64,000 bases of DNA from Thermoproteota archaeon (GCA_024720975.1 JANJXX010000005.1:7059-71058); one strand, 5' to 3'; numbered from the stretch's first letter, positions 2,402 through 46,920 are shown. Notes: a model not told the origin generated them from the sequence alone. Translations and numbers: made by a program.

Positions 2402-4104
2402 TGGGGATAAAGATGAAAAAAAGCATGGTTGGATTTTTAATTCTACTAACAATGCTCGCATTACTGCTCACACTAGCATATAGTTTTGAATACGTTGGTG
2501 TAGCCAGGGTTTCATCTATAACAATTGAAAACGGCGGGACTTTAATCATAGCGGCTAAAGTATGGGAACCGGTTGGCACTAGGCTTGGAACTGTCGTTCT
2601 GATACACGGTGCTCTGGCCTCAAAAGAAATGCTTCATCCTCTAGCATCGGATCTAACGAGAGCCGGTTGGCGTGTGGTTTTATTCGATCAACCCGGACAT
2701 GGAGGGACCACAGGAGGGTACTTTATAAGCTCAGGCGAGCTAGTCAACACGACGTTAGCATTAAAGAAAGTTCTCAATCAAACAACTGAGTATCGCAAAA
2801 TGATAATTGATTATCTGCGACGAGAAACAGATTCGAATGAAACCGTAATTTTTGGTGGGCATTCCCTAGGTGCTTTTCTAGCCATATTACTAGCTGTTGA
2901 AGCTCAAAATGAATTTAATGTTCTTGCAACAATTGCTATAGCCCCTCCATATTTTCCAGGTTTGGTAAATTCCTCAGTTCCAAGGAATCTTCTCATATGT
3001 CTTGGAGAACATGATGAGTTTATAAAATTTGATGCCGTTAGAATGTATCTTGATCCCACAAACTCATCTGACATACGAGCGAATAGGATCTACGGATCTT
3101 TTGAAAATGGAACAGCCAGGATGATATTCGTATCTAAATTCTCGGACCACATCCTAGAGGTCTACGATCCGGCCATTATTTCGAGAGTTCTAGAGTGGAT
3201 AGATAATGCTAGAGGCATCTCTGGTGTAAGATACGTGAATCTAGGAACTTTCATCGCCGCTCTTAAAGCAATAGCAGGCCTTACAGGCATAGCACTTGTA
3301 TCGCTCATACCGCTTCCTATTGCTGAAAAACTGGGAATGATCTCCGGAGGAAAGCGATTTCCGATCGGAAAGCATGTAAAAGTTGTAATCATAGCTAGCA
3401 TTATCGTGTGGCCTCTTCTAACAGTGGTATTGTTGATGTCGTTCCTAAGTGGAATAGTATACATCGCTGGAAGCATCGGATATATCGTGCCCATACTCGT
3501 TGGTGGATATCTATTCGTGGCAATAGTAGCTATAATATTCTCTTCGAGTGTTATTTCAAAGTCAAATATCAAAGATCACTTCAAAAAGGTTTTACTCTCA
3601 TTGAAAAGCGATTTCTACCGAGGGACTTTCCTAGGAGTCATCGAAGGCATACTCTACGTTTTACTGCTACATTTAACTTATGGTTCAATTGCAATTCCAG
3701 TAATTCCGCAGACAGTAGGTCGTATGATTATAGCCATACCTACAGCTTTCATGATATTCTGGTATTTCATATTCCATGAGTATTTTTACCGAGCGCAAAT
3801 ACAAGAAATTTTAGGAGGGAGAAGATTCTCAGCAGCGACTTTGTCCATATTAATATCACTGACTTCCAAAATTGTAGTAATAGTTGTGATAATCATCATG
3901 ATGTACTTAATATACCCCGTGGCGACATTTACAATTATAATAGCCTTGTCAATGGTGTTGATAGCGCTTTTAACAGAGGGTCTCTCTGCCGCTAGTTACT
4001 ATGCAACTCGTGAGATTTACCCCCATGCGCTAGCAAGTGCTATAATCTGGGCATCTATTGCGACAGCAGCATTTCCAACGGCATGGCTTGCAGTTACTTT
4101 ATAA
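2392..4104 (+). CDS. Alpha/beta-hydrolase domain fused to a polytopic membrane domain (CPBP-like?)
   Basis: N-terminal signal/TM segment, GGHSLGA nucleophile elbow (GxSxG) and HG oxyanion region. The C-terminal ~300 aa are multi-TM and contain an EYFYR motif. Confidence 0.6.
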   Translation: MDVVGIKMKKSMVGFLILLTMLALLLTLAYSFEYVGVARVSSITIENGGTLIIAAKVWEPVGTRLGTVVLIHGALASKEMLHPLASDLTRAGWRVVLFDQPGHGGTTGGYFISSGELVNTTLALKKVLNQTTEYRKMIIDYLRRETDSNETVIFGGHSLGAFLAILLAVEAQNEFNVLATIAIAPPYFPGLVNSSVPRNLLICLGEHDEFIKFDAVRMYLDPTNSSDIRANRIYGSFENGTARMIFVSKFSDHILEVYDPAIISRVLEWIDNARGISGVRYVNLGTFIAALKAIAGLTGIALVSLIPLPIAEKLGMISGGKRFPIGKHVKVVIIASIIVWPLLTVVLLMSFLSGIVYIAGSIGYIVPILVGGYLFVAIVAIIFSSSVISKSNIKDHFKKVLLSLKSDFYRGTFLGVIEGILYVLLLHLTYGSIAIPVIPQTVGRMIIAIPTAFMIFWYFIFHEYFYRAQIQEILGGRRFSAATLSILISLTSKIVVIVVIIIMMYLIYPVATFTIIIALSMVLIALLTEGLSAASYYATREIYPHALASAIIWASIATAAFPTAWLAVTL

Positions 4105-4148
4105 TTAACAATAAACTCCTCTTTATGAGTTTTTGATTACACTTAGAG

Positions 4149-4583
4149 GTGATTAACTTGATTCCAAAAGAACTTCTAGATGAATTAGCTGGAGCTTTTT
4201 ATGAAAGAAAACTGTCCAGGCTCGAGAATGTAGAATTGGTTCTTTGGATATGTTGGCTGGATAGGACTTCTCTTAGAGAGCTTAGAATAATAAGCGCAGA
4301 AGAGGATTTTAAGGTCATTTGTGTTCATGGAGTTAAAGTTGTGATCGATGGAAAGGAATTTTTAGACGCGATGACTGCAATTGAACTAACCGAAAAATAT
4401 TATGTGAGTTTAAATTCAGCGACAAAAGATGACTGGAAAATGTTTATTGAAAGAATAGTTGAAGAGGAGCACCCTCGCGTAATACCCGGCTACACTTTCA
4501 GAAAGCGTTTTGGTTTACCAGAATCGCTATCTTCCTTCGAGATAAATGTACTAAGTATAGACCTCAGGGAAGAGAAGAAATGA
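4149..4583 (+). CDS. Hypothetical protein
   Basis: 144-aa ORF with a GTG start after AGAGGTG. Its stop overlaps the next gene's start (ATGA). Confidence 0.4.
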   Translation: MINLIPKELLDELAGAFYERKLSRLENVELVLWICWLDRTSLRELRIISAEEDFKVICVHGVKVVIDGKEFLDAMTAIELTEKYYVSLNSATKDDWKMFIERIVEEEHPRVIPGYTFRKRFGLPESLSSFEINVLSIDLREEKK

Positions 4584-5341
4584 CCAACATCTACATCGGA
4601 GTCTGTGCCTTCAAGAAGAAGTATTATAAAAGTGGCATAAATTGCGTCGAAGTCCAACAAACCTTTTACAATATACCAATGGAAAAAACCTTGCAGAAGT
4701 GGAGAGAAGAAGCGCCTCCAGAATTCATTTTCAATGTGAAAGCCTTTCAGGGTTTAACACATGACATAAAATCTCCTACATGGAAGAGGTTTACTAAGAA
4801 ACTAGATGAGCACCAAAAGAAACTGGTGGGTAATCTAAATCTCAATGAGCTTACTAAGGAATGGATTAACAAGCACATAAATTTCATGAGAATACTCAAC
4901 GCACGAGTACTTTTGATTCAGACCCCAGCAAGCTTTAATCCTACTAGTGAGAATATAAAGAAGGCTTTGAGATTTTTTGAGTATCTATCCGATAAGATTA
5001 AAGAGTCAAAGGCTGACTTCTGGATTGGTTGGGAGCCAAGAGGGGAGTGGATGAAAAATTTTCATAATTTGGATAATGTCTTCAGTAGTTTCAATAATAT
5101 TACTCATGTGGTCGACATATTCTTTCATGAACCGATCACAGTGCGTAAGATCATGTACTTTCGGCTTCATGGAAAACCGTATCTAAACTATAGGTACAAA
5201 TACTCCGACGAAGATTTCAAATTCCTGATTCAAAGGATAGATAGTCTAAAAAAGACTTCAGATTCAATTTTCTTAATGTTTAATAATGTTTACATGGAGC
5301 AAGATGTCCTGAGATTTAAGAAATTTTTGGGTGTTAAATAA
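4580..5341 (+). CDS. DUF72 (UPF0759) family protein
   Basis: The N-terminal pattern IYIGVCAF...VEVQQTFYNIP...W...PPEFIFNVKAFQGLTH is typical of DUF72. Confidence 0.7.
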   Translation: MTNIYIGVCAFKKKYYKSGINCVEVQQTFYNIPMEKTLQKWREEAPPEFIFNVKAFQGLTHDIKSPTWKRFTKKLDEHQKKLVGNLNLNELTKEWINKHINFMRILNARVLLIQTPASFNPTSENIKKALRFFEYLSDKIKESKADFWIGWEPRGEWMKNFHNLDNVFSSFNNITHVVDIFFHEPITVRKIMYFRLHGKPYLNYRYKYSDEDFKFLIQRIDSLKKTSDSIFLMFNNVYMEQDVLRFKKFLGVK

Positions 5342-31252: not shown

Positions 31253-31559
31253 TTTACGCAGATACCTTATCAGTTATGACACCTAGCTAATCAAACTACG
31301 CCTCTCAATGGTTCGAAAAGCTTGAAAAACCCAAACCATAAAATTGACAAAAATTCGTCAAATATCCTTAAGTACACAGTAATAAAGCTTTTTTAGACAC
31401 AAGTAGCATTTATCTAGATAGATCTCGATTCAAAGTGATTCGATGAGCCGGTAATTTCCAAATGGTTGAGACTTCTATCGCGGGTTCCCCATAGCCATAT
31501 ATAGATTCTTTGCGCTTTTGTCTAAGTAGGTAACATGTTGGACTGTTTTCTTTGTGAAC

Positions 31560-31568
31560 TTTTTAAGC
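31560..31568 (+). promoter_or_regulatory. TATA-like box of repeated RNA element, copy 1
   Basis: TTTTTAAGC lies within the block GTGAACTTTTTAAGCTATTTTAGCTAC. That block is conserved upstream of all three copies. Confidence 0.5.
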
Positions 31569-31660
31569 TATTTTAGCTACTACAGATACATAGAAACAAA
31601 AGAGAAACCAGTGAGCATAAAGATTTTTATACCTTAATTCTATATGAACTGATATTAGGC

Positions 31661-31861
31661 TCTCGCCTCAATGACGGCGTGGTGGTCATCAGAGGCGGGA
31701 GGATACACCTGTCTCTCGAGGCGGGCTTAGTGGTGCCCGTCGATGTAGCTCCCGATGACCCTGCGACAAATGAGCAGGTGCTGAGGGAGAAGCCCGTGTC
31801 GAGTATATCTATGATATTTAAAATACCTAAACAAACCCAAATAAGCGACACGGACAACCAC
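31661..31861 (+). ncRNA. Unclassified GC-rich structured RNA element, copy 1
   Basis: ~200-nt GC-rich island in AT-rich DNA, homologous to 34402-34602 and 46576-46779(-). Shows conserved and compensatory stems. Its ORFs are not preserved in copy 3. Confidence 0.6.
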
Positions 31862-31954
31862 TTAATGATGATTTTATATTTGTCTTAAGCTACTGCAATA
31901 TCATAGTTGATTTCCTAATGTATTATTGTTGGAATAGAGTATCGACTGAGTCCC

Positions 31955-32653
31955 GTGGTGAAATTAATGAGCGAACAGAAAGGGGAAGAATCCAAAATGT
32001 CAGAAGAATCGCAAGTCGAGGCGGAAGCTGAGAAGATCCTCAAAGAACTTGAAGCTGGCGAGATTAAGCTTTTTGATAGATGGAGTTGGAAAAACATAGT
32101 TGTAAGGGATCCGGGTCTTGTAACGTATATATCTTTAAAACCTATGTATGTTCCTCATAGCTTTGGTAGGCACGAAAAAACGCGTTTTGCGAAGGCGAAA
32201 GTTAATATAGTTGAGAGATTGATAAATAGATTAATGACACCGGGCAGAGAAAAGGGTCAACCTAAGACCGGCAGGTTTACTGGTAAAAAACTTCATGCCA
32301 TGAAAATTGTAGAGGCAGCATTTGAAATAATAGAAAAATTGACAAAGGAGAATCCTATACAGGTATTCGTGAGAGCAGTGGAAAATGTTGCTCCGAGAGA
32401 GGACTATACATCTTTCAGAGTTGCAGGAATTATCAAGAAATTTGCAGTTGATATAAGTCCGCAGAGAAGGGTAGATTTAGCTCTTAAATTCATAGTATTA
32501 GGTGCTAGGCAACGTGCATGGAGATCACCAATTAGTATAGCCGAAGCCCTTGCAGAGGAGATAATTGAAGCAGCAAAGGGTCCAGATAATGTAAACTCAA
32601 TAGCCGTAAGCAAAAAGATAGAATTAGAAAGGATAGCAGAAGCCGCCAGATGA
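31955..32653 (+). CDS. rps7: 30S ribosomal protein S7 (uS7)
   Basis: Strong archaeal S7 pattern (VERLINRLM.PGR..GKK..A..IV..AFEII...T..NPIQV.V.A.EN..PRE). Start ambiguous (GTG 31955 or ATG 31967). Confidence 0.9.
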   Translation: MVKLMSEQKGEESKMSEESQVEAEAEKILKELEAGEIKLFDRWSWKNIVVRDPGLVTYISLKPMYVPHSFGRHEKTRFAKAKVNIVERLINRLMTPGREKGQPKTGRFTGKKLHAMKIVEAAFEIIEKLTKENPIQVFVRAVENVAPREDYTSFRVAGIIKKFAVDISPQRRVDLALKFIVLGARQRAWRSPISIAEALAEEIIEAAKGPDNVNSIAVSKKIELERIAEAAR

Positions 32654-33887: not shown

Positions 33888-34297
33888 AAACTAGCTTCTG
33901 TGCAGTCAGCCACTCTTTTTTCATTCCTCATTTATCAGACTATTATATTAATTTCTGCTGCCTTCATCTATCGAACTAGGATGACGACCCAATCCTAGTA
34001 ATCTAACAATAGTAATACGTCTAGAACCCTTAACTTTAGATTAACCACTCTCTAATGTGGGTATACTCCACTTCTCCGGCTATTGGTCGTTATTCCGGAT
34101 GATATCCTACAGTTCATATCCTAATAGGAACCCAGCCAGCGCAAAGAAACTTTACCAGGCCGTGCCATAAGCTTTTATAATCATAGCCTTCCAGAGAGCG
34201 TAGTACCCTTGAAAAATCTCCAGCCTTTGGGTTAAAGCAAGGTATATATGCCTATAACTTAAGATAAAAAGTAACAAGACTGTGTCTTCCGTAAAAG

Positions 34298-34306
34298 TTT
34301 TTAAGC
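34298..34306 (+). promoter_or_regulatory. TATA-like box of repeated RNA element, copy 2
   Basis: TTTTTAAGC within GTAAAAGTTTTTAAGCTGTTTTAGCTAC. Confidence 0.5.
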
Positions 34307-34401
34307 TGTTTTAGCTACTATAGGTACTTGGAATCAGATTCAAGTGCAAGAAATGCGGATTCGAGTTTAACTCACACTACGTAGCTTGCCTAAACCTCTT
34401 C

Positions 34402-34602
34402 TCTCGCCTCAATGACGGCGTGGTAGCCATCAGAGGCGGGAGGATATATGCATACCTCGAGGCGGGCTTAGTGGTGCCCGTCGATGTAGCTCCCGATGAC
34501 CCTGCGATAGATGAGCAGGTGGCGAGGGAGAAGCCCGTGTCGATAATACCCAAGATAATCAAAACACCTGAACAAACCCAAATAAGCGACACGGGCAACC
34601 AC
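34402..34602 (+). ncRNA. Unclassified GC-rich structured RNA element, copy 2
   Basis: Near-identical core to copy 1. The terminal stem GCCCGUGUCG/CGACACGGGC is perfect. The element ends 1 nt before the rps12 stop codon on the opposite strand. Confidence 0.6.
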
Positions 34603-34603
34603 T

Positions 34604-35044
34604 CTATCTCTTCTCTTTCTTCTTGCGGCCAGATACAAGCTCATATAGGGATATTCCATTAACCTTAATTACACGGTATTTTACACCGGGAATATCGCCA
34701 AACGAGCGTCCACGAACTCCTCCTATGGGTTGAATTAGAACCTCATCATGCTCATCAATCATTAAAAGTCCACCGTCATAAGGTACAAAGGCAGTTACAA
34801 TTTTCCCATTTTTCTTTAATTTTACCTTCACACACTTTCTAAGAGCGCCTGTTGGTTTTCGTGCCTCGACTCCAACTTTTTTGAGGACAATCCCTAACGC
34901 CTGCGGAGCTCCCTCAAGTGGATCAAACTTCTTCTTGAATCTTAGGACTCTCCTCTTATAATCGAGGTCAGCCCATCGTGCTTTACTCCTCTTTTTCCTC
35001 AGTATCCTTACTGCAAACTCTCCCCTTGGTGATTTCGTTACCAT
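34604..35044 (-). CDS. rps12: 30S ribosomal protein S12 (uS12)
   Basis: [40 protein letters not shown]....[27 protein letters not shown]. The ATG at 35044 is preferred to the ORF start at 35116. Confidence 0.9.
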
Positions 35045-35422: not shown

Positions 35423-37057
35423 ATGAAAGCGAAGGCAATAGCAATCCTAAGTTTCCTTCTAGTAGCCGCCCTTACTGCAATAAGTGTAAGCACAGTCTAC
35501 GCAAAAAGCTATAATAAAACGCTTCCCGATTTCTCTGATTTCCTAGAGTCTAGAGACGTGGCTGCTATAATTTACGAATTTGTAGGATCCCTCAGTGCTG
35601 GCAAGGAAACTCCCCAATACAGCTTCTCCGTCGACTCTACAGTTACTAAAATAGAAGTAACCCTCAATATGCCAAGTGGTACTGACTTTGACTTGTCCGT
35701 CTGGGATCCCCAAGGCAGGCGTACTGGAGGCTGGACTTCGACGGATAAGTCTGTAAAAACTCAGATTCCAAATTCGAAATATTCAGGAGACTCAGCGAAT
35801 CCTGAGTGGGTCACTGTAAGTCCTCCTGCAAGTACAGGTACTTGGAAGACTAGTTGTTATGCGTACTCAGGTTCTGGCAACTTCAAGATCACAGTAAAAC
35901 TGTACGTCACGTCAACAAGCCAGTATAAGTACATATTCTCGGGCTCAGTTAGCAGTGGCAAGGATAGCACGCAACACTCATTTAGTGTTCCATCTACAGC
36001 GACCAAAGTTGAAGTAACCCTTAATATGCCAAGTGGTACTGACTTTGACCTATCAGTTTGGGATGCTCAAAACAGGCGTACTGGAGGCTGGACTTCGACG
36101 GATAAGTCTGTGAAAAATCAAATTCCAAACGCGCAGTACTCAGGATACTCAGCGAATCCCGAGAAGATTACCGTAAGCCCTATAGACTCCACGTCAGTTG
36201 GTACTTGGAAGACCAGTTGCTATGCATACTCAGGTTCTGGAACATACACAATAACAGCCGTGGTCACTCTGTCTACTAGCAACGGTGGTGGAAGTAGTGG
36301 AGGCAGTAATGGAGGTAGCAGTGGAAGTGGCGATGGTGTAGTTAGAAAGTGGGCTGTGATAGTTGGTATATCTGACTATAAGGCAATCTCAGACTTGTCA
36401 TACTGTGATGAGGATGCAACGGATTGGTATAACTTCTTAACAGGAAAACTCGGCTGGCCCTCCTCGAACATCAAAGTTTATGGAGATGGCAGTAGTAGCA
36501 GTTATTATCCAAAGTATGATGGTAAGGCGACGGAGTATAACGTCAAGCAGGCATTGAACTGGCTCGTAACAACGGCTGATGCCGATGATATAATCGCATT
36601 CATATCATCCGGACACGGAAGTGGAGACGGTAAAGGAAACTCATACCTCTGCATGTGGGACAGTGGAGCTGGCGAGAACGGTCAAGATGGAAATCTCTGG
36701 GATTACGAGCTAGCAGCAATACTCAAGAATGCAATTGCCGCTAAAATATTCGTATTCCTGGACCATTGCTACTCCGGTGGATTTGGAAACGACTTAATGA
36801 GCATGCCCAATAGTGCTAGAGTATACCTGACGACAACATGTACTGAAAAAGGATATGGATATGATGATCCAAATCACAAAAACGGTGCATGGACATATTA
36901 CTTCCTAGAGTACTCATGGATAGGAAAATATGGAGGATCCCCAGACGTAGCTCTAGAAGATGTATACGCATACGCTAAAAGTGCATACCCATACAGTGGA
37001 GGCGACGCACCACAGCAATTCGATGGAAACCCCAACAGTCCATTCTACCTCAAATAG
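35423..37057 (+). CDS. Secreted clan-CD cysteine peptidase (caspase/legumain-like) with two N-terminal PPC-type beta-sandwich domains
   Basis: Signal peptide, two ~117-aa repeats carrying GTDFDLSVWD, a Gly/Ser linker, then KWAVIVGISDY...SSGHGSG...FLDHCYSGG (His-Gly / Cys dyad order of clan CD). Confidence 0.7.
   Translation: MKAKAIAILSFLLVAALTAISVSTVYAKSYNKTLPDFSDFLESRDVAAIIYEFVGSLSAGKETPQYSFSVDSTVTKIEVTLNMPSGTDFDLSVWDPQGRRTGGWTSTDKSVKTQIPNSKYSGDSANPEWVTVSPPASTGTWKTSCYAYSGSGNFKITVKLYVTSTSQYKYIFSGSVSSGKDSTQHSFSVPSTATKVEVTLNMPSGTDFDLSVWDAQNRRTGGWTSTDKSVKNQIPNAQYSGYSANPEKITVSPIDSTSVGTWKTSCYAYSGSGTYTITAVVTLSTSNGGGSSGGSNGGSSGSGDGVVRKWAVIVGISDYKAISDLSYCDEDATDWYNFLTGKLGWPSSNIKVYGDGSSSSYYPKYDGKATEYNVKQALNWLVTTADADDIIAFISSGHGSGDGKGNSYLCMWDSGAGENGQDGNLWDYELAAILKNAIAAKIFVFLDHCYSGGFGNDLMSMPNSARVYLTTTCTEKGYGYDDPNHKNGAWTYYFLEYSWIGKYGGSPDVALEDVYAYAKSAYPYSGGDAPQQFDGNPNSPFYLK
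35570..36280 (+). repeat. Intragenic tandem duplication (two ~351-354-bp units) encoding the PPC-like domains
   Basis: Units lie at about 35570-35920 and 35927-36280. They share long identical runs such as CCAAGTGGTACTGACTTTGAC and CAGGCGTACTGGAGGCTGGACTTCGACGGATAAGTCTGT. Confidence 0.8.
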
Positions 37058-44867: not shown

Positions 44868-46550
44868 TTAGCCAACGGATTTGAAGCGCCATTTACTATA
44901 AGCCCGACGCGCGCTTATTATTGCATGTGCATTAAGGCTCATCCAATACATCCCAGATTCTTCGAAGAGCTTTGCTGCTTTCTTAAGCAGTTTAATCGCT
45001 AGTTTTTCCCTCTCGTCAATGATTTTGTTGGAGATTTCGTTGAGAAATGATGCGTAAACGGGAGCGCTTCTGGGGAGTAAAAGTTTTTCAGCAGTCTTTA
45101 CGGTTTCTAGAAGTAGGTATTCCTGGTGATTTTGAACAGATCCTAAAGCTACTGCGAATAGTATCTCACCAAGTTCATTTGCTCGAAGTTTTGCATGCTC
45201 TAGATTGTTCAATATGTACCGAATGCCGTCAGTAAATTTTTTCTTCGAAAGATATTTGACAGCAATAATTAGGTAAAGTGGATCACTTAAACCGATCAGT
45301 CTTTCTATAGCTTTAGAGATGTCGTTCTCGCTGTCTGAGACTATGATTGTAATGAGTGATTCTAATCCAATCTTGTGTCTGGCTTCATTAATCAACTCTG
45401 AAGTGCTACTGAAAATTTCAGTGAGCTCACGAAACTTCTCATTGCTAGTTGCTACTTGAAAGAGCTCATTCCAAATCTCTAGGTGCTGAAGGCCGCTTAT
45501 TTTGTTCTCTTTATTGAACGTTCTGATAGCATTTACCAGTAAAGTCTTAAGCCCAAGTCGCAAGGCAGCCGCGGCATATGCTTTAAAAACTCTTAGCGTA
45601 CATGGTTGATCTTCAACCTCATAGCAAATGTTTATGGCCAAGTCTAGGTATGCTTGGCTACTTGATGCATCTTTGCTAAGCAAGTTTATTGCGTATTTTA
45701 GTGCAAGCTCTATTAATCCATTTCTTGCGCCTAGGTTATATAACTTGCTGATGATCAAATTCATGATTCCTATGGATTCGATATCACACTTCTCGAGTGC
45801 AACGGCTAATATTTTAGCAAGCATGTCAGCTTGATCCTTGGTTTCGACTTTACCCAGCGCCTTCGCAATCAATTCTGGAAAAAATCCAGGAATGCATTCA
45901 ACTTCGTTTATATACTCCCAGAGAGTAATTAAGAAGTTACTGAGATCATTATTGACTAAATCAAGAAATTTCTTGTTAGTTTCCTCATTCGGTAGGTACG
46001 AAAGAGCAATTCCTAGTAAACTAAAATACAGTCTAGGATCAATAACTCTTATCTTATTGATGAAGTCGAAGCAAAGTGCATTGTTTCCTCTTTTAAGTAG
46101 CACTCGGATTAGATTTCTCGATAATAGTCTATCCTCAAAATCTGAGAATCCCCGCGATAGCAGTAGGTCAAAAACTTCGGTAGCATTCGGATTGACGAGA
46201 AATAGCTCTCTAAAATATATAACTTTGGCTTGATCAAAAGCGCTAGCATCGAATAGAGATAATAGTTCCCCGAGTTTCTCTAGATACTTCCCACTAGGAA
46301 CAATTCTCTTGATAAGGTACTCAAAAATTGTAAGTGCCGCTTGTTGCATCGAAGCCTTAAGAAAAGATACTATCGCTAAACGACCATATTGTAGCATAGA
46401 CTCAAGGGTGTTAGAAAGATAGAGTAACTCCCTGTAGAATTTAGCAACAGCAAACCAAATAATTCTAGATTCATATCCGATCTCAGGCAATATTGGCTCG
46501 TTTTCCAATTGTCTTAGTATGCTCCTAGCTAATTTATAATCCTTAAGCAT
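44868..46550 (-). CDS. Hypothetical all-helical repeat protein (560 aa)
   Basis: Long ORF with no motif recognised. It lies immediately downstream of RNA element copy 3 on the same strand. Confidence 0.5.
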   Translation of the reverse strand: MLKDYKLARSILRQLENEPILPEIGYESRIIWFAVAKFYRELLYLSNTLESMLQYGRLAIVSFLKASMQQAALTIFEYLIKRIVPSGKYLEKLGELLSLFDASAFDQAKVIYFRELFLVNPNATEVFDLLLSRGFSDFEDRLLSRNLIRVLLKRGNNALCFDFINKIRVIDPRLYFSLLGIALSYLPNEETNKKFLDLVNNDLSNFLITLWEYINEVECIPGFFPELIAKALGKVETKDQADMLAKILAVALEKCDIESIGIMNLIISKLYNLGARNGLIELALKYAINLLSKDASSSQAYLDLAINICYEVEDQPCTLRVFKAYAAAALRLGLKTLLVNAIRTFNKENKISGLQHLEIWNELFQVATSNEKFRELTEIFSSTSELINEARHKIGLESLITIIVSDSENDISKAIERLIGLSDPLYLIIAVKYLSKKKFTDGIRYILNNLEHAKLRANELGEILFAVALGSVQNHQEYLLLETVKTAEKLLLPRSAPVYASFLNEISNKIIDEREKLAIKLLKKAAKLFEESGMYWMSLNAHAIISARRAYSKWRFKSVG

Positions 46551-46575: not shown

Positions 46576-46779
46576 GTGGTTGCCCGTGTTTTTTTGTTCA
46601 GGTTTGCCTAGGTGTTTTGGATAACATGAATACTATTAACACGGGCTTCTTCCCCAGTACCTGCTTACCTATCGCGGGTCATAGAGGTACATCGACGGGC
46701 ACCAACGAGCCCGCCTCGGGGGATAGACATATCCTTCTGCTCCCCCTGGTGGCTACTCTACCGTCATTGAGGCGGGACA
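46576..46779 (-). ncRNA. Unclassified GC-rich structured RNA element, copy 3 (most divergent)
   Basis: The reverse complement aligns with copies 1 and 2. Stems are maintained by compensatory changes (GGGGGA/UCCCCC and GCCCGUGUU/AACACGGGC). No ORF is present. Confidence 0.6.
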
Positions 46780-46814
46780 CTTTTTGATTCCAAGTACCTA
46801 TGGTAGTTAAAATA

Positions 46815-46823
46815 GCTTAAAAA
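46815..46823 (-). promoter_or_regulatory. TATA-like box of repeated RNA element, copy 3
   Basis: The reverse complement reads GTAAAGTTTTTAAGCTATTTTAACTAC. Upstream homology to copy 1 continues to 46869. Confidence 0.5.
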
Positions 46824-46920
46824 CTTTACAGAGAAAACAGTCCAAGAGATTTGATGACATAAAAGCGCAGTAGTTGGAGCTTCCTAATAGCATATTGAAG
46901 AAGGATTACTGGAGTATATG

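Follow-up and report, generated by a model that had tools for sequence, protein, structure and literature searches.

A probable internally deleted IS607-family element with an omega RNA scaffold adjoins rps12 in an archaeal genome

Results

The locus at the 3' end of rps12

The DNA analysed here, called the window below, is a stretch of 64,000 nucleotides from a Thermoproteota archaeon (GCA_024720975.1, JANJXX010000005.1:7059-71058). It is archaeal, has a GC content of about 40%, and no tRNA or tmRNA genes were found in it. On the minus strand it carries an intact rps12 gene (Table 1), whose assignment to Ribosom_S12_S23 was made by Pfam on identical Logan contigs. The closest named relatives of the encoded S12 protein are those of Candidatus Njordarchaeia (75% identity), and its C-terminus is similar to the C-termini of S12 in relatives.

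The 3' flank of rps12 is now the antisense strand of a 325-nt element, the second of three copies in the window. Copy 2 ends in ...CACGGGCAACCAC at position 34602, with ...GGGCAACCAC as its final motif. A single T (34603) separates it from CTA (34604-34606), which on the minus strand reads TAG and ends rps12. The initial annotation, which described an RNA element convergent with rps12 and ending 1 nt from its stop codon, thus placed the 3' end correctly, and it was also right that no gene follows on the same strand, the next plus-strand ORF being found only at 35423. Its start at 34270 takes in 8 nt of flanking DNA and has to be moved to GACTGT at 34278.

Two features of the surroundings may be recorded here. 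A 390-nt stretch (33888-34277) separates the left end of copy 2 from an Alba-like small gene. It has no ORF longer than 45 aa, and Rfam gave only a chance-level match in it (C/D-box sR24, E = 0.2). In addition, the gene for a 544-aa secreted protein (35423-37057) contains an internal tandem duplication at 35636-36257, made of 189-nt and 58-nt units that are 83-84% identical and about 360 nt apart.

Table 1. Features of the mini-elements and of rps12 in the window
Feature	Position	Strand	Basis or remarks
Copy 1 of the mini-element, 321 nt	31541-31861	+	Right end 93 nt upstream of rps7
Copy 2 of the mini-element, 325 nt	34278-34602	+	Begins with GACTGT
Left end (LE) of mini-IS607 copy 2	34278-34336	+	95% identical over 59 nt to the LE of L030:2983-5013
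tnpB 3'-end remnant, last 77 codons	34336-34566	+	Second zinc-ribbon CxxC, RuvC-III region and C-terminal tail; without start codon context
Predicted omega RNA (reRNA) scaffold, about 203 nt	34400-34602	+	RNAalifold consensus, 18 homologues
Hairpin P1	34400-34443	+	RNAalifold consensus
Hairpin P2	34461-34482	+	RNAalifold consensus
Hairpin P3	34490-34530	+	RNAalifold consensus
Hairpin P4	34533-34596	+	RNAalifold consensus; 10-bp stem, 34533-34542 with 34587-34596
Scaffold tail AACCAC	34597-34602	+	Copy 2 sequence
Predicted omega RNA guide TCTATCTCTTCTCTTTCTTC	34603-34622	+	Analogy with TnpB systems
rps12 (ribosomal protein S12), intact	34604-35047/35116	-	ORF list; Pfam Ribosom_S12_S23; S12 homologues 75-89% identical
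Copy 3 of the mini-element, 267 nt, decaying	46576-46842	-	TnpB frame with stop and frameshift; three P1 pairs broken

Three copies of one element

Repeat finding and alignment within the window revealed three copies in all. Each consists of a left block containing …GTAAAAGTTTTTAAGCTGTTTTAGCTACTATAGG…, a copy-specific segment and a GC-rich core ending in GGGCAACCAC. That copy 2 has its promoter block and core in common with copy 1 had been noted before and holds for all three copies, the left blocks being 83-93% and the cores 73-89% identical. When a full-length relative was compared with the window by BLASTN, the three cores were matched at E = 5e-101, 4e-64 and 3e-28, so their similarity cannot be due to chance.

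The copies differ in their state of preservation. In copy 2, GCCCGTGTCG pairs with CGACACGGGC in a perfect terminal stem of 10 bp. This stem is, as the initial annotation stated, unique to copy 2, since copy 1 has one mismatch (…CGACACGGAC) and copy 3 only 9 paired bases. Copy 1 is 100% identical to the metagenome contig L034; its specific 58-nt spacer (about 31600-31660) has no match in any of the elements fetched. Some of the copies are relics and copy 3 is decaying; copy 2 is structurally intact.

Copy 3 is followed on its own strand by a gene for a 560-aa protein (44868-46550, minus), whose ATG is only 25 nt from the right end of the element. The promoter of this gene must be situated inside or upstream of copy 3, and the gene may therefore be driven by a transposon promoter.

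A tnpB 3' end makes up the core

Homologues of the core were sought with a 26-nt core pattern scanned over one genome per species. There were 14 true archaeal matches, the sources being Ignisphaera, Sulfolobales, Desulfurococcaceae, Staphylothermus, Baldrarchaeum, Njordarchaeota and an uncultured archaeon. Five actinobacterial matches to the 26-nt pattern (L003, L009, L014, L018 and L019) fall in GC-rich coding DNA and were rejected as chance hits.

At several of the loci a coding sequence containing …FKCKKCGFEFNSHYVACLNLFSRLNDG… is found upstream of the core. In locus L008 the core region forms the end of a 437-aa ORF matching Pfam PF07282 (Cas12f1-like_TNB) at 8e-15, and its product aligns with Cas12f and TnpB structures across the zinc ribbon and the RuvC-III region. 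A second TnpB, of 425 aa, encoded at L030, matches PF07282 at 2e-15. When the L008 TnpB was compared with the window by tblastn, its residues 360-436 were found in the remnant of copy 2 (92% identity, E = 8e-42), residues 378-435 in copy 1, and residues 381-430 in copy 3, the latter with a stop codon and an indel. By these matches, the segment that appears as "variable" in copy 2 represents 22 tnpB codons beyond those kept by the other copies. Only TnpB tails were matched by this search, and no full-length tnpA or tnpB of the copy 2 family was found in the 64-kb window.

The GC-rich core of copy 2 is the 3' end of tnpB (about 200-270 nt), which doubles as an omega RNA scaffold.

The left block is the left end of an IS607-family transposon

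Scanning of metagenomes with the left-block pattern yielded 12 contigs. One of them, L030, contains an element of 2031 bp (positions 2983-5013) composed of the left end, a Resolvase-domain ORF (PF00239, 9e-26), the 425-aa TnpB and a right end ...GGGCAACCAC. The HTH part of its tnpA carries a frameshift and a stop (L030:3050-3190), and this reference copy may itself be non-autonomous. In five further loci (L032, L033, L035, L040 and L041) the left block is followed, about 47 nt past the TTTTTAAG box, by GTG-TCC-GAG-AAG-CTC-TAT…, which we read from the sequence, not from a database match, as the probable HTH start of an IS607-type TnpA.

Copy 2 corresponds to nucleotides 1-59 (95% identity) and 1763-2031 (90% over 269 nt) of the L030 element, with nothing between them. 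Deletion derivatives with common ends measure 263, 267, 321, 325, 597 and 1843 bp. L008, with a full tnpB, and L011, a deleted form, occupy one site with an identical flank. Two traits expected of an IS607 derivative were found here: full-length relatives with the ends of copy 2 encode a serine-recombinase TnpA and TnpB, and copy 2 keeps both ends while having lost the internal genes. Since it carries a TnpB tail and shares its ends with the 2031-bp relative, copy 2 appears to be an internally deleted IS607-family element.

What had been taken for a promoter block of the element is the left end of an IS607-family transposon, carrying the promoter of the tnpA/tnpB operon. In copy 2 it includes a BRE-like GTAAAAG (34291-34297) and a TATA-like TTTTTAAG (34298-34305). 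From the archaeal BRE/TATA consensus and spacing, a promoter with a start near 34326-34330 is predicted. The earlier argument against a leader or 5' UTR is upheld: copy 2 is neither for any gene beside it. Its promoter block, of archaeal type, is conserved and belongs to the element itself.

A conserved four-hairpin RNA

The consensus structure of 18 homologues comprises four hairpins with 40 pairs. In the alignment 94% of the cells are paired, compared with 42-52% when partners were slid. Compensatory double changes occur in 18 pairs versus 5.7 in shuffles, and none of 500 shuffles reached the observed values. Copy 2 keeps all pairs of the consensus structure, and the folding z-score of its RNA is -3.96 against shuffles. 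Conserved secondary structure with covariation is expected of an omega RNA. A pseudoknot may be formed by GUGGU in the P2 loop (34471-34475) with ACCAC at the very end (34598-34602): the two segments are complementary in 98.9% of cells, both sides being essentially invariant.

In L008 and L030 the TnpB stop codon precedes the right end by 31 nt, and the scaffold is made up of the last ~172 coding nucleotides plus the tail. It therefore shares sequence with the 3' end of tnpB and goes no further than the edge of the transposon, which is the arrangement of omega RNAs. Rfam reported nothing at gathering thresholds over the whole window, and at E <= 10 only chance-level matches (E = 2.4 and 8) in 34200-34700. 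We also considered the terminal stem of P4 as a DNA hairpin for a Y1 transposase of IS200/IS605 type; this was ruled out, the parent encoding a serine recombinase.

The predicted guide

In TnpB systems the guide corresponds to 16-20 nt directly outside the right end (PMC10097598; Meers et al. 2023). By analogy, the predicted guide of copy 2 would run antisense to the end of rps12, covering the stop codon and the last five codons. Among 19 distinct insertions no relationship between the 3' flanks is seen, and the predicted guides of the three copies have sites with fewer than three mismatches in the window only at each own flank. Guides matching their own flanks therefore fit retention of a TnpB transposon and not regulation in trans. 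No oligo-T terminator was found directly after the guide; the first T4 run lies about 75 nt into rps12.

These observations change the meaning of two earlier proposals. Transcription running out of copy 2 was expected to be antisense to rps12, and the direction is indeed antisense; it need not be regarded as accidental read-through, since TnpB guides sit just past the right end, and the overlap with rps12 arises because omega RNAs take their guide from the flank. The sharp 3' boundary, for its part, had been taken to favour an independently transcribed RNA. It is the right end of a transposon, a boundary of DNA recombination, and does not show where a transcript ends.

Element boundaries and insertion at rps12

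Across 14 left-end and 19 right-end contexts with unrelated flanks, the boundaries |GACTGT and CAACCAC| are sharp, so that several copies with common ends occupy unrelated sites, as expected of an IS607-family element. The only preference seen in the flanking sequence, including the side 5' of the left end where a TAM would be expected, is weak (T-A at -2/-1, T at +1). The junctions of copy 2 read GTAACAA|GACTGTGTC ... GGGCAACCAC|TCTATCTC, and neither a terminal inverted repeat nor a target-site duplication was found at them. IS607 elements have neither (PMC10690162).

The comparison of rps12 3' flanks in related genomes, which the initial annotation proposed, counts against a host RNA gene: no element was found downstream of rps12 in the S12 relatives L024, L025 and L027-29. 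In a Njordarchaeia relative (L025:5001-6104) S12 and S7 are adjacent, with a 12-nt spacer, and follow rpoA-L30e-NusA. L027-29 have S12 and then a convergent L23 (L23-L4-L3), and L024 has no element within 173 nt of S12. In more distant relatives the gene orders around S12 differ or are rearranged.

As for an orthologous empty site, L024 (S12 89% identical) aligns over the coding region only, its flanks having diverged, and a search by the exact S12 protein led back to this strain alone, with copy 2 in place and the contigs breaking inside the repeat. Since no alignable empty site was recovered, insertion of copy 2 at rps12 is inferred from element architecture and distribution and was not seen directly. 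The position of copy 2 by rps12 would be an insertion site, and the predicted junction of the vacated site is ...AAAAAGTAACAA|TCTATCTCTTCTC....

In the window, rps7 (31955-32653, plus) and rps12 are apart and on opposite strands, and right ends of mini-IS607 copies adjoin both genes, with a gap of 1 nt to the S12 stop and of 93 nt to the beginning of S7. The mini-IS607 copies may have split S12 from S7.

Around copy 1, contig L034, from the same metagenome, deserves mention. Its positions 1-822 correspond at 100% identity to 31541-32362 of the window (copy 1 and the start of rps7). Directly to the left of the first base of the left end, L034:823-5359 is unrelated DNA, with ORFs resembling, by sequence motifs alone, GMP synthase and components of a phosphate ABC transporter. 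The difference at 31541 is due either to a chimeric assembly or to a rearrangement whose breakpoint coincides precisely with the end of the transposon. Another observation concerns a Desulfurococcaceae MAG (L016:6030-6054, minus), where 3 nt separate the right end from a sequence resembling, to the eye, a tRNA 3' end in convergent orientation; it is a second case of the element adjoining the end of a convergent gene.

The parent TnpB family and its spread

Alignment of the parent TnpBs (L008, L006, L015 and P0124-P0231) revealed an invariant FN-x-[H/Q]-YVA-x-LN. The family has His or Gln at the position of the canonical RuvC-III Asp, a D/E conserved 12 residues downstream, and DINED as its RuvC-I motif. 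P0124 and P0128 are 86-90% identical to the L008 TnpB. Archaeal branches of serine-recombinase-associated TnpBs with conserved RuvC-III changes are regarded as having rearranged, probably active sites (Altae-Tran et al., PMC10691335), and the site of the parent family looks like this rearranged catalytic site. Its nuclease activity is uncertain, since His or Gln replaces the RuvC-III Asp.

TnpBs at least 85% identical were found in MAGs labelled as Sulfolobales, Desulfurococcaceae, Zestosphaera, Ignisphaera, Acidilobaceae, Bathyarchaeia, Nanopusillaceae and Thermofilaceae, and mini-elements about 91% identical to those of the window in Sulfolobales MAGs (L004/L031). The distribution of the two would indicate wide horizontal transfer among hot-spring archaea, or else contamination of bins.

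Discussion

The interpretation that we consider very probable is that copy 2 is a non-autonomous, internally deleted IS607 insertion, placed 1 nt past the rps12 stop and containing an omega RNA scaffold. A deletion would have removed tnpA, encoding the serine recombinase, and about 85% of tnpB, so that the left end, with the promoter of the tnpA/tnpB operon, now adjoins the final 269 nt, in which the scaffold and the right end lie. Transcription would start from the left-end promoter near 34328 and give a product of about 290 nt, consisting of a short leader, the four-hairpin scaffold up to AACCAC, and the guide from 34603 to about 34622. The RNA would then associate with TnpB, provided by a full-length copy at another place in the genome. 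The serine TnpA would excise the element scarlessly, TnpB would then cut the vacated site, and repair from the sister chromosome would restore the element (retention, or 'homing'). The common ends would also let TnpA mobilise the mini-element in trans. TnpB-driven transposon retention is established for IS605 and IS607 (Meers et al. 2023; PMC10690162). For copy 2 itself we infer transcription, TnpB loading, cleavage and mobility.

The strongest competing explanation, possible and clearly less likely, is that copy 2 is a dead relic, an IS607 deletion remnant that is not transcribed, mobilised or used and whose sole present effect is to supply rps12, on the minus strand, with its 3' UTR and terminator region. 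The T-rich runs of the P4 loop, read on that strand 20-45 nt past the rps12 stop, could indeed terminate rps12 transcripts. Neither TnpB nor TnpA is encoded in the window, the tnpA of the "full-length" L030 element is damaged, and the other two copies show wear, copy 3 by its broken pairs, stop and frameshift and copy 1 by the mismatch in its terminal stem. Nevertheless, copy 2 retains every consensus pair and a left end 95% identical to those of full-length elements, and the occurrence of copy 1 at 100% identity in two contigs with differing left flanks suggests recent activity. Moreover, the mini-forms whose junctions were read (copies 1-3, L004 and L017) keep the entire scaffold, and three different junction sequences (copy 1, copy 3 and L004/L017) begin no more than about 2 nt from the base of P1. 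The retained scaffold counts against a dead relic, since a recombinase site ought to get by with less.

Domestication is improbable. Copy 2 would in this case be a promoter-driven guide RNA steering a RuvC-altered, possibly nuclease-dead TnpB to the 3' end of rps12 or upstream of rps7, a TldR-like regulation of ribosomal protein genes. The parent TnpB family does lack the canonical RuvC-III Asp, rps12 and rps7, neighbours in a relative, each have one of the three copies beside them, and the element has its own conserved promoter. Both transposon ends are kept, however, and the element occurs at many unrelated sites in other genomes, is missing at rps12 in relatives of the organism, and has guides matching only their own flanks in the window. 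The His/Gln change, too, is conserved in a mobile serine-recombinase family, and such sites are read as probably active (PMC10691335). We give just as little weight to a related idea with two variants: either the mini-elements are stand-alone guide-RNA genes acting with a RuvC-III-altered, possibly non-cleaving TnpB on rps12 and rps7, or events at element ends driven by TnpA or TnpB have split an ancestral S12-S7 operon. The exact left-end breakpoint between the window and L034 hints at such TnpA- or TnpB-driven events.

Still less credible is an independent family of cellular small-RNA genes; a host non-coding RNA with a promoter of its own would then occur in three copies and have no connection with mobile DNA. 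The identity of the core with the 3' end of a TnpB gene, that of the promoter block with the left end of a tnpA-tnpB transposon, and the position of the copies at non-homologous sites, absent from relatives, speak against it in spite of the conserved promoter-like block, the structured GC-rich core with covariation and the absence of a downstream gene on the same strand. The initial annotation favoured an independently transcribed RNA; of this, a structured RNA with its own promoter block stands, and a free-standing cellular RNA gene does not, the core being the 3' end of tnpB. Copy 2 is a known kind of selfish element and not a new cellular RNA gene.

Least plausible of all, a small protein gene at ORF 34420-34662 (80 aa, GTG start), encoding a free-standing C-terminal peptide of TnpB, is open in copies 1 and 2 and conserved as the TnpB tail, but its frame is broken in copy 3, its end shifts with the length of an A-run and runs past the right end into rps12 antisense, it has no Pfam match of its own, and no ribosome-binding context was identified.

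Taking copy 2 as a deleted IS607 element, its likeness to known systems can be specified. With the IS607 family (Zedaveinyte et al., PMC10690162) it shares the order of genes in its full-length relatives (a Resolvase-domain TnpA, then TnpB), ends without inverted repeats or target duplications, and a scaffold lying over the 3' end of tnpB. It differs in that the copy in the window has lost both genes and has no group I intron, in its archaeal, thermophilic origin, and in the His/Gln at the RuvC-III Asp of the parent TnpB. Unlike the bacterial IS607 reRNAs, its RNA matches no Rfam family, including the RAGATH-18 type.

PATEs are gene-less derivatives of IS200/IS605 elements that often encode omega RNAs used by TnpB in trans (Meers et al. 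2023). Copy 2 is similarly short and protein-less, has both parental ends and a putative omega RNA, and would need TnpA and TnpB in trans. Its parent, though, is an IS607 element with a serine recombinase instead of an IS200/IS605 element with a Y1 transposase, it lacks subterminal DNA hairpins for a Y1 TnpA, and the parental promoter is fused to the omega RNA. Copy 2 works like a MITE or a PATE and is neither by definition, for its ends GACTGTGTC... and ...GGGCAACCAC are not inverted repeats and its parent uses a serine recombinase.

Compared with the omega RNA of ISDra2 TnpB (cryo-EM structure, PMC10097598), the four hairpins have a counterpart in four stems; overlap with the 3' end of tnpB, a guide past the right end (predicted for copy 2) and the ability of nucleotides 5' of the guide to pair upstream in a pseudoknot are also common to both. 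The scaffold of copy 2 is longer (about 203 nt versus 116 nt) and has no sequence similarity to that of ISDra2, and its candidate pseudoknot is mere complementarity of invariant segments.

In TldRs the transposon ends have been lost and the guides are aimed at host promoters. As outlined in PMC10705468, these proteins are domesticated TnpBs acting as RNA-guided transcription factors. Copy 2 resembles them in having a guide RNA of TnpB type and a TnpB relative with an altered RuvC site; it departs from them by keeping both ends, by occurring in several copies at unrelated sites and by having its own flank as guide. It does not belong to the TldR type, which is immobile, without transposon ends and directed by its guide against a host promoter elsewhere.

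An apparently new "RNA gene" in three copies thus becomes a probable gene-less IS607 derivative bearing a guide RNA, an identity that is testable. For annotation, this means that GC-rich structured blocks of this sort in AT-rich genomes of thermophiles should be taken as omega RNA and right-end modules rather than novel non-coding RNAs or leaders. The biology of TnpB would gain a natural fusion of a transposon's own promoter straight to an omega RNA, an archaeal scaffold of about 203 nt that is supported by covariation and includes a candidate pseudoknot, and a widely transferred thermophilic TnpB family of uncertain activity with His/Gln at RuvC-III. For the host, the 3' end of rps12 now adjoins mobile DNA that may yield antisense RNA.
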